A stretch of 26,097 nucleotides of DNA from a virus. Lineage: Duplodnaviria; Heunggongvirae; Uroviricota; Caudoviricetes. The stretch lies in the IMG/VR virus record IMGVR_UViG_3300044535_000502; one strand, written 5' to 3'. A program made the position numbers and the translations under genes. A model generated the notes under the pieces. It saw only the letters and a program-made list of their open reading frames with translations. It did not search any database and was not told the origin of the DNA. This document shows positions 30 to 7,969 of the stretch, piece by piece (the stretch's first letter is position 1; every line of letters starts with the position of its first letter).

Positions 30-947
30 ATGAAGAAAAAATACTATTTTATGGCAGGTTTGCCACGTAGCGGCAGCACAATGCTATCGGCTATCCTAAA
101 CCAAAATCCAAGATTCTACTCTGGTCCTAGTTCGCCGGTGGTTTCTACCATGTTAACTTTGGAACAATCACTGAGCCAAGATGAACTGTTTCTTGCATAT
201 CCAAAGATGGAATTTGGTAAGAATCTAGTTACATCAGTCATTGATCAATACTATGCAGATACAGACAAGCCAGTGGTATTTGAAAAGAATCGCAGTTGGG
301 TAAACAGAATGGATTATATTCAAGGATACTTTGGTATTGAACATCCAAAGATCATCTATCCGGTGCGTGATGTAGCTGAGATTCTAGCATCATTCATCTC
401 AATGATTAAACGCAACCCACACATCGTCAACGACAGGTTAAACTTCATCGACCAATCGCTTGTGCAGCAAGGCATTCCATTGACTGATGAAAATCGTTGC
501 CGCGCTATTGCTGGTCCAGGCATTCTTGGTCAATCGTTTGATGGACTAAAGAAAGCTCTTTCTGAGGGATATAGAACAAGTATTCACTTTGTTGAGTACA
601 AGGATCTTGTAAGTAATCCAAAAGAAACTATGAGACAGATATATAAGTTTCTAGGAGAATCAGAATACAATCATGATTTTAAGAACCTGATAAACCAGCA
701 TCAAGAAGATGATGCTAAAATTTATGGATTCACTGACATGCACGAGGTCCGCAAAGAATTGAAGTCAACTGCTCAAATGCCCGAAGATGTATTACCAAAA
801 GTTATTTTGGATGCAGTTGTTGGTGCGGAGTTTTGGCGAGAACTTGATGATGTGCCATTAACAAACGAAACGGTTGATGATAAGCCAGAAAAGAAGACTA
901 GCTTCTTTGGCGAAGTAATAGACCAAGAAGACACAAGATTTATTTAA
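30..947 (+). CDS. PAPS-dependent sulfotransferase family protein (305 aa)
   Basis: N-terminal 5'-phosphosulfate-binding loop FMAGLPRSGSTMLSAILNQNP; internal EKNRSW; 3'-phosphate-binding motif IIYPVRDVAEILASF; 'VEYKDLVSNPKETMRQIYKFLG' segment typical of the family; AAGGA RBS upstream. Confidence 0.85.
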   Translation: MKKKYYFMAGLPRSGSTMLSAILNQNPRFYSGPSSPVVSTMLTLEQSLSQDELFLAYPKMEFGKNLVTSVIDQYYADTDKPVVFEKNRSWVNRMDYIQGYFGIEHPKIIYPVRDVAEILASFISMIKRNPHIVNDRLNFIDQSLVQQGIPLTDENRCRAIAGPGILGQSFDGLKKALSEGYRTSIHFVEYKDLVSNPKETMRQIYKFLGESEYNHDFKNLINQHQEDDAKIYGFTDMHEVRKELKSTAQMPEDVLPKVILDAVVGAEFWRELDDVPLTNETVDDKPEKKTSFFGEVIDQEDTRFI

Positions 948-959
948 GGAGATTCTATC

Positions 960-1241
960 ATGGAAGAACGAGTAAGAACATTAGACGATATCAAGGGAAC
1001 CATCAAAGCTGCACGGGACAGTGTGTGGGTTATTGGTGATGAGATTGCAAAATTGGCTGCTGGATCACAGGCAAACAATGAAAGAAAAGGCAATATTGAA
1101 CGCAACGTTGCGCATCTGAAAATTGTTGTTTCTGATCAAGCAATTGTTGATTCAGGAGAAGATATCACGGATCTACTAGCAGCTATTACAACAGGCGAAG
1201 CAAAACTAGCCGAAAACATTTGGATAACACAAGGAGAATAA
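960..1241 (+). CDS. Hypothetical protein (93 aa), predicted helical
   Basis: ORF with AGGAG RBS, tightly packed between neighbours, with phage-like codon usage; no catalytic motif recognised. Confidence 0.8.
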   Translation: MEERVRTLDDIKGTIKAARDSVWVIGDEIAKLAAGSQANNERKGNIERNVAHLKIVVSDQAIVDSGEDITDLLAAITTGEAKLAENIWITQGE

Positions 1242-1242
1242 A

Positions 1243-1413
1243 ATGGAAATTACATTGAAACTATCATTAGAACAAGTCAACGGTATCATCTATGCATTGG
1301 GTGAACTACCAGTTAAAACAGGTGCAGCGCAATTGGTCAGCTTGATCCATGAACAAGTTCAACCACAAGTGCCAGAACAGCCAGCAGAACAAACAGAACA
1401 AGCCGCAGAGTAA
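1243..1413 (+). CDS. Small hypothetical protein (56 aa, MEITLKLSLEQVNGIIYALGELPVKTGAAQLVSLIHEQVQPQVPEQPAEQTEQAAE); absent from the ORF track
   Basis: Translated by hand: AGGAG at 1232-1236, ATG at 1243, TAA at 1411-1413. It fills the gap between 1241 and the next RBS. Confidence 0.8.
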   Translation: MEITLKLSLEQVNGIIYALGELPVKTGAAQLVSLIHEQVQPQVPEQPAEQTEQAAE

Positions 1414-1429
1414 TCTAACGGAGTATATT

Positions 1430-2224
1430 ATGCAGAAAATTCTTATTATGGGTCTACCAGGTGCCGGGAAGACTTATCTAGCTCAACACATTTTGGATCA
1501 TTTACAAGCTGATAGAAAACGTGTTGGCTGGTTGAATGCGGATGATGTACGAAAAAAGTTCAACGATTGGGACTTTAGTCATGAGGGTCGTATTCGCCAA
1601 AGTAAACGAATGGCAGAACTTGCTGAGACTCAATATGGTGACATGGATTTTGTAATTTGTGATTTCGTTGCTCCTCTTCAGGAAATGCGAAATAACTTCA
1701 AAGCAGACTGGACAGTATGGGTAGATACCATTGATAAAGGTCGCTTTGAAGACACCAATAAGATTTTCACTCCACCAGAAGTTTACGACTTCAGGATTAC
1801 CGAACAGCATGGTGAAAAATGGGGTGAGTTTATTGCGGCTCATATTCTGGATAATAGACGCAGACCCACATTTGATTGGCAAAAAGAGACTGTTCAGATG
1901 CTAGGAAGATGGCAGCCATGGCACCAAGGTCACAGAGCTTTGTTTGAGAGAGCTATCAGCAAGACTGGCCAGGTTGTCATACAAATCCGAGACTGTCAAG
2001 GCTGGCAAGGATCAAATCCATTTGCCATTGAACAAGTCAAAAGCTATATTAAACGCGATCTTGACACTCTATATCAAGGACAATATGAAATTCAGGTTGT
2101 TCCTAACATCGTGAACATTACCTATGGGCGAGATGTTGGATATAAGATTGAGCAGGAAGTATTTGATGACGCGACACATGCAATAAGTGCTACAAAGATC
2201 AGAAAGTCTATGGGAATCAAGTGA
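1430..2224 (+). CDS. Fusion of an adenylylsulfate (APS) kinase-like P-loop domain and a C-terminal HxGH nucleotidyltransferase domain (264 aa)
   Basis: Walker A GLPGAGKT (1451-1474); LNADDVRK and DFSHEGRIRQ resemble CysC 'LDGDxxR' and 'GFSxxDRxENIRR'. The C-terminal domain has GRWQPWHQGH (1904-1933), NPF and ISATKIR. Start moved from 1349 to ATG 1430 (GGAG RBS at 1420-1423; the upstream extension overlaps the 56-aa gene). Confidence 0.75.
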   Translation: MQKILIMGLPGAGKTYLAQHILDHLQADRKRVGWLNADDVRKKFNDWDFSHEGRIRQSKRMAELAETQYGDMDFVICDFVAPLQEMRNNFKADWTVWVDTIDKGRFEDTNKIFTPPEVYDFRITEQHGEKWGEFIAAHILDNRRRPTFDWQKETVQMLGRWQPWHQGHRALFERAISKTGQVVIQIRDCQGWQGSNPFAIEQVKSYIKRDLDTLYQGQYEIQVVPNIVNITYGRDVGYKIEQEVFDDATHAISATKIRKSMGIK

Positions 2225-2281: not shown

Positions 2282-3001
2282 ATGAAACGATTTTTATCCA
2301 TAGCGGCTTTATTGTCTGTAGCACTTCTTACTGGATGTGCTAGCCAAGATTATAAGATGTACGCAGACGCCCAAAGAGCCATTGCATCAGCAAATGCAAC
2401 CGCAGAAAGTGCAAAATATGCGGCTCTTGCTGAGATTGCAAGAACAGGTGATGCTACAGCTAAGGTAGCGGCTGTTATGAGCATCAACTTTGCTGCCTCA
2501 AACAACACCCGCAATCAACAACAACAAATCTTGCCACCAAAATCTGCTGGTGATATTGCACTGCAATGGACTTCATTGCTGTTGCCTAACTTGACACAGT
2601 TCTATTCAATCAATGCGAACCGTCAAGTTGCTATCACACAAAGCAATAACGCAACTGCATTGGGTATCAAACAGAGTGATAACCAAGTGGCTACAACCAC
2701 TAACACAAACAACACGTTTGCAAACATTGCAGGTGCTGGTCTAACAGCAGTTACTACAACAGCAGGTGCTGGGCTGGCAGCCACAGTTGATGTTGCTAAA
2801 GCTGGTTTAACCGCAACCACAACAGTCAGTGGTCAAGGAAGTGCAGCTTCAGCTAGTATTTCAAAAGATGCGAGTGATTCTATCAAAGCTATTGCCGATG
2901 CCATGGAAAACATTCAGCCTAATGTGACAACCACAAACTCAAACAATACGTCTTATTCATGTCCTGCTGGCCAAACGCTTGTCGCTGGCAGTTGCGTATA
3001 A
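2282..3001 (+). CDS. Predicted lipoprotein (239 aa), Ala/Thr-rich
   Basis: MKRFLSIAALLSVALLTG|C: basic N-terminus, hydrophobic core and lipobox with Cys19 at 2336-2338. AGGAG RBS at 2271-2275 supports ATG 2282 over TTG 2243. Confidence 0.8.
   Translation: MKRFLSIAALLSVALLTGCASQDYKMYADAQRAIASANATAESAKYAALAEIARTGDATAKVAAVMSINFAASNNTRNQQQQILPPKSAGDIALQWTSLLLPNLTQFYSINANRQVAITQSNNATALGIKQSDNQVATTTNTNNTFANIAGAGLTAVTTTAGAGLAATVDVAKAGLTATTTVSGQGSAASASISKDASDSIKAIADAMENIQPNVTTTNSNNTSYSCPAGQTLVAGSCV
2729..2827 (+). repeat. Degenerate 33-nt (11-aa) tandem repeat within the lipoprotein
   Basis: gcaggtgctggt at 2729, gcaggtgctggg at 2762 and gctaaagctggt at 2795, giving AGAGLTAVTTT / AGAGLAATVDV / AKAGLTATTTV. 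Confidence 0.7.
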
Positions 3002-3023: not shown

Positions 3024-3046
3024 ACGCCCCTTTAATGGGGCGTTTT
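3024..3046 (+). terminator. Rho-independent terminator after the lipoprotein gene
   Basis: Stem ACGCCCC (3024-3030) / GGGGCGT (3037-3043), 6-nt loop, followed by a T run. Confidence 0.75.
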
Positions 3047-6332: not shown

Positions 6333-7969
6333 TGGCATATGCTGGTGGATATAACGGTAACTCAAGTCTGAAACGTGCCGGTGTTGAAATTGAATACACC
6401 CACGATCAGCTAATTGAGATTACCAAATGCATTAAGGATCCTGTATACTTCATTAAGAAGTACGTCAAGATTGTTAACGTTGATCATGGCTTAATGCCAT
6501 TTAACATGTGGCCTTTCCAGGAGGAAATGGTCAAAGGCTTTCATGCGAATAGATTCTCCATCGCAAAAATGCCACGACAGGTCGGTAAGACAACCACAGC
6601 CGCAGGCTACATGTTGTGGTGTGTACTGTTTACGGATGACTATAAGATCGCCATTCTAGCCAACAAGGGTGATCTAGCAAGAGACATTCTCGGTAGAATC
6701 AAATATGCGTTTGAATATCTTCCACTTTGGATGCAACAAGGCATTGTTGAATGGAACAAAGGAAACATTGTTCTTGAAAACGGATCAGAAATATCAGCAT
6801 ATGCAACAAGTGCGGCTGGTGTTCGTGGTGGATCATACAACTTAGTATTCTTGGACGAATTCGCTTTCGTTCCACAGAATATGGCTGTTGAGTTCTTTAC
6901 CTCGACCTATCCAGTTATCTCTTCTGGTAAAACTACCAAAGTTATCATCGTTTCAACGCCACATGGACTGAACATGTTCTACAAGATGTGGACAGATGCG
7001 GTTGAAAAGCGTTCTCTGTATGTTCCGTTTGAAGTTCACTGGTCTATGGTGCCAGGTAGAGATGCTAAGTGGCGAGATGAAACGATACGAAACACAAGTG
7101 AAGAGCAGTTCAGGCAGGAATTTGAATGTGAATTCTTAGGGTCATCTGCAACGTTGATTCCAGGATCAAAATTAAAGACACTGACATTCAACTATCCAAT
7201 ATCCACAGAAGAGTATCTACAAATTTTCGAGGCACCCAAAGCGGGTCACACATACATTGCTGTGGTTGATTGTGCCGAAGGCGTTGGTCTAGACTATTCA
7301 GTATGCTCAGTTATTGATGTTACTGAGTTACCGTACAAACATGTGGCTAAATTCAGAGACAACAAACTGTCTCCTATGTTATTTCCAACATATGTTTATA
7401 ACTTAGCTAATAGATATAACAGAGCTTGGGTTCTGGTTGAAACGAACAGCGTTGGTCAACAAGTTGTGGACATCCTACACTACGATCTTGAGTATGAGAA
7501 CATATTCAGGATCGAGCATCATGAGATAAAGGGCCAGCATATATCATCAGGCTTCAAAAAAGGTGCTGCATATGGTGTAAAAACATCCAAAACAGTCAAA
7601 AAAATTGGTTGTGCTAACTTGAAAACTCTGATTGAAACAGACAAACTCATAACAAATGACTTTGATGCTATCGCAGAACTGAACACATTTGTCAGAGTAA
7701 AGGAGTCTTATGAAGCTGAAGAAGGTAATAATGACGACATTGTGATGACTCTGGTGTTGTTTTCTTGGCTGACAGCACAGTCATACTTCAAGGAAATCAC
7801 AGATTCTGACGTTAGACAGAGATTGTTGGACGAAAGAAGCCTACAGATGGATGATGAGATGTTGCCTGTGGGTGAGCTTGATGATGGTCTACAAGAACAA
7901 AAAGAGTTTGATGGCACCGATCTGTGGACAAACCTAGGTCAGCGAGGCTACATGGCCTCAAGTTTATAA
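6332..7969 (+). CDS. gp17: Terminase large subunit gp17 (545 aa)
   Basis: Walker A MPRQVGKTT, Walker B VFLDEFAF, coupling motif IVSTPHG, and RNase H-like nuclease residues (VVDCAEG, NNDDIVM). Confidence 0.95.
   Translation: MAYAGGYNGNSSLKRAGVEIEYTHDQLIEITKCIKDPVYFIKKYVKIVNVDHGLMPFNMWPFQEEMVKGFHANRFSIAKMPRQVGKTTTAAGYMLWCVLFTDDYKIAILANKGDLARDILGRIKYAFEYLPLWMQQGIVEWNKGNIVLENGSEISAYATSAAGVRGGSYNLVFLDEFAFVPQNMAVEFFTSTYPVISSGKTTKVIIVSTPHGLNMFYKMWTDAVEKRSLYVPFEVHWSMVPGRDAKWRDETIRNTSEEQFRQEFECEFLGSSATLIPGSKLKTLTFNYPISTEEYLQIFEAPKAGHTYIAVVDCAEGVGLDYSVCSVIDVTELPYKHVAKFRDNKLSPMLFPTYVYNLANRYNRAWVLVETNSVGQQVVDILHYDLEYENIFRIEHHEIKGQHISSGFKKGAAYGVKTSKTVKKIGCANLKTLIETDKLITNDFDAIAELNTFVRVKESYEAEEGNNDDIVMTLVLFSWLTAQSYFKEITDSDVRQRLLDERSLQMDDEMLPVGELDDGLQEQKEFDGTDLWTNLGQRGYMASSL

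Follow-up and report, generated by a model that had tools for sequence, protein, structure and literature searches.

In the present study we have analysed part of the genome of a T4-like phage that has not been cultured (26,097 nucleotides, IMG/VR record IMGVR_UViG_3300044535_000502, hereafter the window), and in particular a gene at positions 1430..2224 of the + strand, whose product of 264 aa (plus stop, with no internal stops) joins a kinase domain to a nucleotidyltransferase domain and is a candidate synthase of 3'-phosphoadenosine 5'-phosphosulfate (PAPS). A ribosome-binding site, GGAG (1420..1423, +), lies 6 nt 5' of the ATG at 1430, and homologues share the Met at this position and not the in-frame ATG at 1349. 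The fusion gene is the fourth in a tightly packed block of five genes on the same strand, formed by a sulfotransferase, two small open reading frames (ORFs) of 93 and 56 aa, the fusion and a predicted lipoprotein, and closed by a terminator-like hairpin; downstream of the block, from 3084 on, follow neck, sheath-stabiliser and other structural genes. A Megablast search with the first 8 kb of the window against cultured phages gave no match. Since more than 8000 metagenomic homologues of the fusion were found (a lower bound, from a word-index search) and near-identical copies of the stretch occur in 20 lake-water metagenome runs, the gene is not a product of chance or of assembly; a representative search gave 2224 matches at E <= 1e-3, with 122 at E <= 1e-30. 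No RNA data set is listed among the runs with the stretch.

The first gene of the block (30..947, +, 305 aa) encodes a sulfotransferase with matches to Pfam Sulfotransfer_3 (2e-16) and Sulfotransfer_1 (5e-14) and to PHROG 27463. Its translation contains the motifs LPRSGST and VRDVAEILAS, which resemble the 5'-phosphosulfate-binding (5'-PSB) and 3'-phosphate-binding (3'-PB) motifs, respectively, and the protein is likely a consumer of PAPS.

The N-terminal part of the fusion (residues 1-147; 1430..1870, +) is a domain related to kinases of adenosine 5'-phosphosulfate (APS), as assigned by PF01583, Foldseek and motif alignment. A prior reading of the DNA without database searches (the sequence-only reading) had described here a P-loop kinase of about 145 aa without a recognisable RDPKGLY lid, and this description is borne out: the P-loop GLPGAGKT occupies residues 8-15 (1451..1474, +), with G8, L9, G13 and K14 invariant among 63 homologues and P10, G11 and T15 present in at least 90% of them, and Pfam APS_kinase (PF01583) is matched over residues 4-92 with 47.1 bits, above the gathering cut-off of 21.1. 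The best sequence match in the PDB is the APS kinase 2yvu (4e-9), in an alignment that includes the P-loop and pairs LNADDVR with LDGDxxR, FSHEGRIRQ with FSxEDRxxN and DFVAP with SFISP. An AlphaFold2 (AF2) model with a mean confidence (pLDDT) of 91.2 was used for a Foldseek search, in which the 34 best matches are all APS kinases with a TM-score to the target of 0.6-0.73. Among the counterparts of the residues binding APS and its phosphosulfate, D38, R41 and F49 are invariant and R54 is kept in at least 90% of the 63 homologues; Q57 is invariant in a 6-sequence alignment only. The domain shares with the CysC APS kinases (PF01583, TIGR00455) the fold, the P-loop and the positions of the APS-site motifs, whereas CysC enzymes have about 180-200 aa, an RDPKGLYK lid and the motif LDGDN, and the phage domain has about 145 aa, no lid, LNADD and a score below the equivalog cut-off. 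Judged by sequence and model, it is a member of the APS-kinase family and more than a generic P-loop protein, atypical in the lid and in the DGDN motif.

The C-terminal part (residues 148-264; 1871..2221, +), delimited by a profile against the PDB and by the AF2 model, is a minimal HxGH nucleotidyltransferase of about 115 aa, here termed mini-NT, which we propose as an ATP sulfurylase. The three motifs that had been noticed from the letters are all in place: the nucleotide-binding HxGH motif GRWQPWHQGH at residues 159-168 (1904..1933, +; R160, Q162, P163, H165, G167 and H168 invariant), NPF at residues 196-198 (2015..2023, +; N196 and P197 invariant) and the nearly invariant ISATKIR at residues 252-258 (2183..2203, +; I252, S253, A254, T255 and R258 in at least 90%), the last of which matches the position of the ISxTxIR motif of nicotinamide mononucleotide (NMN) adenylyltransferases (NMNATs) and of the SGTxxR motif of Sat-type ATP sulfurylases. 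A further loop, YGRDVGY (residues 232-238; 2123..2143, +), contains the invariant residues G233, R234, V236 and Y238 and has no counterpart in NMNATs; N226 is also invariant. The invariant set holds across homologues of 39-100% identity, and is kept also where the nucleotidyltransferase is a separate gene of 124 aa. Degenerate catalytic residues, which the sequence-only reading had named as a possible sign of an inactive domain, were not seen, the residues of the HxGH, NPF and YGRDVGY motifs listed above being invariant across homologues. It is possible that the YGRDVGY loop is an analogue of the GRD loop of Sat, which binds ribose and sulfate (PMC3779200).

A 65-sequence profile of the mini-NT against the PDB found the NadM protein 2qjt (1e-10) and MJ0541 (6e-9), in alignments covering the first two thirds only. 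With NadM and the archaeal NMNATs (2qjt, 1f9a, 1ej2; TIGR01527) the domain has in common GRxQPxHxGH, NPF, ISxTxIR and the first three strand-helix units; however, it is about 50 aa shorter, its partner is of the APS-kinase type and its contexts are related to sulfur rather than to NAD. In comparison with the smallest NMNATs, about 25 aa are missing between the third strand and the GY strand together with about 30 aa at the C-terminus, and the residues ~74-107 and 137-168 of MJ0541 find no counterpart. We take the stretch that follows the third strand, together with the C-terminal helices, to be the NMN side of the NMNAT site, and the absence of the parts serving a large second substrate fits a very small nucleophile. 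The NCBIfam models of NadM/NMNAT, TIGR01527 and PRK01153, gave 27.9 bits against a cut-off of 127 and 25.2 against 181.2, with only residues 157-225 aligned. A model of the mini-NT alone (pLDDT 88) gave VIA Z scores of 9.4 with phosphopantetheine adenylyltransferase (PPAT), 9.3 with NadM, 8.9 with MJ0541 and 8.2 with the Thermus ATP sulfurylase 1v47, to which it superposes with a root-mean-square deviation of 3.3 over 112 residues on the shared HUP fold; Foldseek gave a concordant picture, with no Sat among the top 50 matches of this model. Because of the NadM profile matches, the missing segments and a profile comparison with Sat that is not significant (see below), the mini-NT is by descent, as judged from sequence, a shortened domain of the NadM-like kind rather than a Sat. 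By the same kind of evidence the fusion is a member of neither the Sat family, the NMNAT equivalogs nor the CysC equivalog, since it lacks defining features of each.

Homologues with 36-39% identity are present in the cultured phages Sano, Salvo and Bacata of Xylella, Suzuki, Bhz60 and DLP6 of Stenotrophomonas, 33 of Clavibacter, and Seregon and AhaSv of Xanthomonas, and IMG/VR holds hundreds of contigs with a homologue of the fusion. Cellular homologues are found in many Alphaproteobacteria (Bradyrhizobium, Inquilinus, Acetobacteraceae, Hyphomicrobiaceae) and in the Pelagibacteraceae. The context counts given here rest on 80 related phage loci and 80 cellular loci. In 23 of the latter, almost exclusively under Pelagibacter or Pelagibacteraceae titles, kinase and nucleotidyltransferase are encoded apart, by genes of 136 and 124 aa with a 4-nt overlap, so that the mini-NT is a protein in its own right. 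A protein of 311 aa (P0220) carries the mini-NT together with a canonical CysC, whose kinase half reaches 233.6 bits with TIGR00455 (cut-off 138.7) and retains an RDPKGLYK lid in its entirety; clustering at 90% identity gives at least 120 clusters with this architecture over the whole length, mostly from marine samples. For one genomic carrier (G322) 2 matches were seen among its relatives, in a sample of 10 genomes that is too small to draw on. Another protein (P0196) has the reversed order, the nucleotidyltransferase preceding a lid-less kinase. These two architectures show that two kinds of APS kinase have become linked to the mini-NT in independent events, and almost all the cases examined have it fused, or coupled in translation, to a partner of the APS-kinase type. 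In one further protein (P0146) a DUF4118 membrane domain accompanies the kinase-nucleotidyltransferase fusion. The marine bacterial loci with the CysC-containing fusion (L171, L173, L174) have a conserved context, consisting of an MFS/PTR2 transporter, proteins with tetratricopeptide repeats (TPR) and 2OG-Fe(II) oxygenase domains, a 655-aa protein without family and a 1660-aa RTX (HemolysinCabind) protein.

A sulfotransferase-like gene lies within 6 kb of the fusion in 45 of the 80 phage loci, 35 of them with a Sulfotransfer_3-type gene and 10 with a small viral sulfotransferase-like gene, and in 20 of the 80 loci it is the immediate upstream neighbour. In phage Sano (L001, 4963-6732, gp33-gp35) the fusion is preceded by a NADAR protein (6e-26) and by gp33, of 195 aa, with overlapping stop and start codons; gp33, two genes upstream of the fusion, shows weak Pfam and PDB signals of a sulfotransferase at the 3'-PB motif, and no similarity was found by BLASTP between it and the sulfotransferase of the window. 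Other frequent neighbours in the phage loci are genes for glycosyltransferases (GT25, GT2, GT1-like), methyltransferases and epimerases, and multi-copy genes for RCC1-repeat proteins. These last, beta-propeller proteins of about 374 aa, form arrays of up to five tandem paralogues beside the sulfotransferase and the fusion in many of the loci, for example in L021, L022, L049 and L069. Because of the RCC1-repeat, glycosyltransferase and methyltransferase neighbours, the gene content suggests that glycoconjugates or proteins of the virion or of the cell surface may be modified. A different surrounding is seen in five IMG/VR loci (L006, L010, L015, L016, L019), in which the fusion gene is flanked by FolE and a CTP_transf_like gene at one end and by QueD, QueE, a GT1-like gene and an epimerase at the other; this is a cluster of the 7-deazaguanine type, with no sulfotransferase in view.

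The 93-aa ORF (960..1241, +) has no family match and a homologue at the equivalent position in another locus (L081), and the 56-aa ORF (1243..1413, +) occupies the gap upstream of the fusion gene. The last gene (2282..3001, +) encodes a predicted lipoprotein of 239 aa, which begins MKRFLSIAALLSVALLTGCAS, has a signal peptide with an LTGC lipobox and is rich in Ala, Thr, Asn and Ser; no family match was found in Pfam or PHROG, and it could be a target of sulfation or a superinfection-exclusion protein. A strong hairpin resembling an intrinsic terminator (3024..3043, +; 7 bp, 6 of them GC, followed by a T-run) ends the block ahead of the neck gene gp13.

Among the cellular loci, that of Bradyrhizobium macuxiense (L100, 442-8768) contains a C39-ABC exporter, an HlyD protein and TPR-sulfotransferases (140 and 153 bits), followed by the fusion. 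The rax system of Xanthomonas comprises the sulfotransferase RaxST, the type I secretion proteins RaxA and RaxB, and RaxP and RaxQ for the synthesis of PAPS. The Bradyrhizobium locus resembles it in the C39-ABC and HlyD genes and in its two sulfotransferases, with the fusion in the position of PAPS supply; on the other hand, this supply is provided in Xanthomonas by enzymes of the CysD/CysNC type, and the phage block is devoid of secretion genes. By analogy, the Rax-like locus suggests that a secreted peptide or protein is sulfated. The same layout is seen in L107, L129 and L115, the last with a protein of 1446 aa downstream, and in a SAR116 genome a TPR-sulfotransferase adjoins the fusion.

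The distribution in SAR11 was surveyed in 201 Pelagibacterales genomes that are 85% complete or more, 162 of which have the mini-NT versus 7 with Sat. Searches of five isolate-grade SAR11 genomes found neither Sat nor CysD; three of these have no APS-kinase homologue other than the partner of the mini-NT, and sulfotransferase-family genes are present in four. The APS reductase subunit AprA is encoded in 20 of 25 genomes with the mini-NT versus 3 of 20 without it (Fisher p = 2e-5, uncorrected for phylogeny and with some genomes incomplete). In three genomes (G137, G139, G164) the mini-NT gene is located within about 400 bp of aprA, and in G137, whose locus is the one of the three that was annotated, the pair adjoins aprB-aprA directly, the order being aprB, aprA, a 116-aa ORF and then, convergent on the opposite strand, the nucleotidyltransferase and the kinase. 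The 116-aa ORF at 6911-7261 of the Pelagibacterales locus L213, directly after aprA and ahead of the convergent nucleotidyltransferase gene, has no family match. Published work reports that most SAR11 lack an ATP sulfurylase despite the AprAB route, and that in Pelagibacteraceae, whose sulfate pathways are incomplete, aprAB belongs to the core genes and is subject to strong purifying selection (PMC10356861 and PMC12636525). In a Pelagibacter core locus (L165, 7134-12903) the split pair stands among genes of glycine-betaine and C1 metabolism (OpuAC, a Rieske oxygenase, BHMT, DMGDH), in a region that also encodes a HalD/WelO5-like oxygenase, an enoyl-CoA hydratase, a CoA-binding protein and two Sulf_transp (YeeE/YedE-like) membrane proteins. 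A replacement of the CoA synthase, following the logic of PPAT with dephospho-CoA kinase, was considered and rejected, as Pelagibacter has a canonical CoaD (176 bits) and CoaE. Additional APS_kinase matches in two Pelagibacter genomes were discarded as candidates for CysC, since they sit in clusters resembling those for O-methyl phosphoramidate (MeOPN). Two such surface-polysaccharide clusters (L209, G005:C1:794000-812000; L210, G004:C2:16000-23173) resemble Cj1415-Cj1418 of Campylobacter jejuni and contain a CysC-like kinase, proteins of about 760 and 205 aa and an NTP-transferase, L209 having also sulfotransferase-like genes nearby.

The arrangement of the fusion can be compared with that of the metazoan PAPS synthases PAPSS1/2, in which a kinase likewise precedes an adenylyltransferase of the HxxH type, with homologous kinase domains (PDB matches 2pey/1x6v) and with the same two-step chemistry as that proposed here. 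The metazoan enzymes have about 620 aa in contrast to the 264 aa of the phage protein, whose kinase is devoid of the lid and of the first aspartate of DGDN and whose C-terminal domain, of about 115 aa and NadM-like, has no PUA-like domain, QxRN loop or PF01747 match. Sat (PF01747; 1v47, 1j70, 2gks) resembles the mini-NT in its HUP fold, in HxxH and in S-x-T-x-x-R near the C-terminus, and G-R-D occurs in a loop of each (PMC3779200), the two loops being possible counterparts; yet there is no detectable sequence homology beyond the superfamily motifs, the phage domain has one third of the size of the catalytic region of Sat, and the QxRN (RNP) loop ahead of HxxH is not present, GRWQPWHQGH standing in the place of QxRNP.

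Four independent contexts, namely the fusion with CysC in an abundant family of marine proteins, the fusion or coupling with the lid-less kinase (phages, Alphaproteobacteria, SAR11), the sulfotransferase neighbours, and in SAR11 the linkage to AprA where Sat is rare, support a tie between the mini-NT and APS. On balance we lean towards the proposal that the fusion is a bifunctional PAPS synthase of compact size, its mini-NT representing a new class of ATP sulfurylase, and that it feeds the sulfotransferase of the phage. In HxGH enzymes an oxyanion attacks the alpha-phosphate of an NTP with release of pyrophosphate (PPi), which with sulfate as the oxyanion is the reaction of ATP sulfurylase. 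Thus, we propose that the C-terminal domain would convert ATP and sulfate into APS and PPi, that the lid-less kinase would phosphorylate the 3'-OH of APS giving PAPS, and that the sulfotransferase, whose gene lies three positions upstream in the block, would use this product. Sat itself is a member of the HxGH superfamily (PMC3779200). What the analysis establishes are the identities of the domains, the conservation of catalytic-type residues and the links to APS enzymes by fusion and by genomic context; sulfate as the nucleophile and the activity of the kinase on APS are inferred. The formation of PAPS would pull forward the thermodynamically unfavourable sulfurylase step, and this very unfavourable equilibrium would explain the coupling of the mini-NT to an APS kinase. 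With its own supply of PAPS, sulfation by the phage would be independent of the activation of sulfate by the host. The possibility of a miniature PAPS synthase, already raised by the sequence-only reading, gains support from the sulfotransferase of the same block, the fusion with CysC, the sulfotransferase neighbours in other loci and the linkage to APS reductase in SAR11. The pathway would then be a known one with its first step carried out by a new enzyme family, a view that we hold with somewhat more conviction than doubt; within the literature covered, a search on phage sulfotransferases and on novel or alternative ATP sulfurylases found no paper on such an enzyme. In a broader form, about which our opinion is evenly divided, the mini-NT would be a third class of ATP sulfurylase beside Sat and CysDN, always with an APS-kinase partner, near-core in SAR11 and captured by freshwater and other phages as a self-contained sulfation module together with diverse sulfotransferases.

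A number of observations weigh against this proposal. As had been recognised from its motifs, the sequence of the C-terminal domain resembles NadM and not Sat: the NMNATs are its closest relatives, the 65-sequence profile found no Sat in the PDB, the Pfam scan of the fusion gave no match to PF01747, and direct homology to Sat was rejected after a comparison by hhalign with 30 Sat catalytic domains, in which the probability was 7.8% and the alignment out of register. The structural comparison with Sat, NadM and PPAT called for by the sequence-only reading established the HUP superfamily and failed to choose among the three, since their scores fall within about 1 Z unit; the fold search is thus non-discriminating, and the fold gives the superfamily and no substrate. 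In the kinase, the RDPKGLYK lid is not present, the Pfam match ending at position 94 of 152 of the profile, and the score with the NCBIfam APS-kinase equivalog TIGR00455 is 35.5, below the cut-off of 138.7. The first Asp of DGDN is replaced by Asn (LNADD) in more than 90% of the family, with the second, D38, invariant, and in human PAPSS1 both aspartates are required (PMC11697783). One protein (P0271) has the lid-less kinase fused to an NTP_transferase of the sugar type (PF00483). As for the contexts, a sulfotransferase-like gene was not seen in 35 of the 80 phage loci, 14 of which are truncated upstream, Pfam Sulfotransfer_3 was not found in the genomes of Sano, DLP6 and Bacata, some phage copies lie inside the FolE-QueD-QueE clusters, and in the Sano-like phages a NADAR gene is directly upstream of the fusion. 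Furthermore, in SAR11 the pair is near-core and sulfotransferases are sporadic, and on these data the main role of the pair in these bacteria need not be sulfation.

Other explanations were weighed on the same evidence. The nucleotidyltransferase might join a nucleoside monophosphate to another small anion such as phosphoramidate, the kinase then adding a 3'-phosphate, so that the product would be a donor similar to PAPS, comparable to the 3'-phospho-CDP-amidate of Cj1416/Cj1415. In the MeOPN pathway of C. jejuni an enzyme of the APS-kinase family (Cj1415) pairs with a nucleotidyltransferase (Cj1416) in building a 3'-phosphorylated activated donor, clusters similar to Cj1415/1416/1417/1418 exist in two Pelagibacter genomes, P0271 combines the lid-less kinase with an NTP_transferase, and the best NCBIfam match of the fusion, PRK05541, is the subfamily passed by the kinase of the MeOPN-like clusters. 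However, Cj1416 is of the NTP_transferase type whereas the mini-NT is an HxGH domain, the identifiable neighbours are Pfam sulfotransferases, the kinase of P0220 passes the APS-kinase equivalog cut-off and the Cj1415-like kinase does not, and the kinase-nucleotidyltransferase pair adjoins APS reductase. The MeOPN pathway needs also a glutamine kinase and an amidohydrolase, and no genes resembling these stand beside the fusion in the window, its neighbours being instead the sulfotransferase, the two small ORFs and the lipoprotein; we regard such a donor as unlikely. That the kinase half alone matters, with APS supplied by the host and the mini-NT acting as a nucleotide-binding, regulatory or oligomerisation module in the manner of the non-catalytic APS-kinase-like domain of fungal Sat, we consider quite improbable. 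Many bacteria make APS without CysC, kinase-only homologues occur in the phages phiRSL1 and RsoM2USA, and the mini-NT bears no Sat-specific sequence signal; against this stand the invariance of its motif residues throughout the range of identity and in the separate gene, its retention in SAR11 genomes with neither Sat nor CysD detected, and its independent fusion to two types of APS kinase.

The linkage to APS reductase also admits a dissimilatory function, in which the nucleotidyltransferase would convert APS and PPi into ATP and sulfate, or APS and phosphate into ADP and sulfate, completing the oxidation of sulfite by AprAB, with the kinase-like domain in a structural or regulatory role. The co-occurrence with AprA, the adjacency to aprBA, the near-core status of the pair in SAR11 and the acknowledged gap in the literature on the fate of APS in these bacteria favour it, but it leaves unexplained the phage copy in a sulfotransferase block, the fusion with a canonical CysC, the intact P-loop and the conserved APS-site residues, and as an alternative to PAPS synthesis it appears quite unlikely. 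As its chemistry is that of the proposed sulfurylase reversed, the two are compatible across different hosts. The GT25, GT2, GT1-like, methyltransferase and epimerase genes frequent in the phage loci could indicate the activation of a sugar or small molecule for nearby glycosyltransferases by a kinase-nucleotidyltransferase pair, following an HldE-like logic; this is very unlikely, given that the kinase belongs by sequence and fold to the APS-kinase family and not to the sugar kinases, that the mini-NT is fused elsewhere to a true CysC, and that the pair in SAR11 is linked to AprBA without glycosyltransferases nearby. The least probable explanation, to which we give hardly any credence, is a salvage of NAD by a ribosylnicotinamide kinase (RNK) and an NMNAT, which in phages would counter host defences that deplete NAD. 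The sequence-only reading had entertained it as a reversed NadR; in NadR itself the NMNAT comes first and the RNK-type kinase second. The relationship of the mini-NT to NadM/NMNAT, the NADAR gene directly upstream in Sano-like phages and a weak match to PHROG 3462 (NMNAT) speak for it. Nevertheless, the domain is short of about 50 aa common to all solved NMNATs, among them those that follow the third strand, the scores of 25-28 bits compare with NMNAT cut-offs of 127-181, and the contexts of CysC, sulfotransferase and AprBA are all out of keeping with it. Moreover, the kinase matches APS_kinase and gives no match at E <= 0.01 to AAA_28, presumably the family expected for the RNK domain of NadR.

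If the fusion is indeed a PAPS synthase with the mini-NT as its sulfurylase, a new enzyme family would have been found for a central reaction of the sulfur cycle, about one third of the size of any known sulfurylase, and a single-chain PAPS synthase of 264 aa would be a handy tool for enzymatic sulfation. In SAR11 the mini-NT would account for the fate of the APS made by AprAB, and bacteria regarded as 'sulfate-blind' would interconvert sulfate, APS and PAPS, which would directly answer the gap left by a core aprAB in organisms mostly without a known ATP sulfurylase. Abundant lake phages would likewise carry their own pathway for the activation of sulfate and for sulfation, which would imply the existence of sulfated molecules of the phage or of the host surface that nobody has sought.

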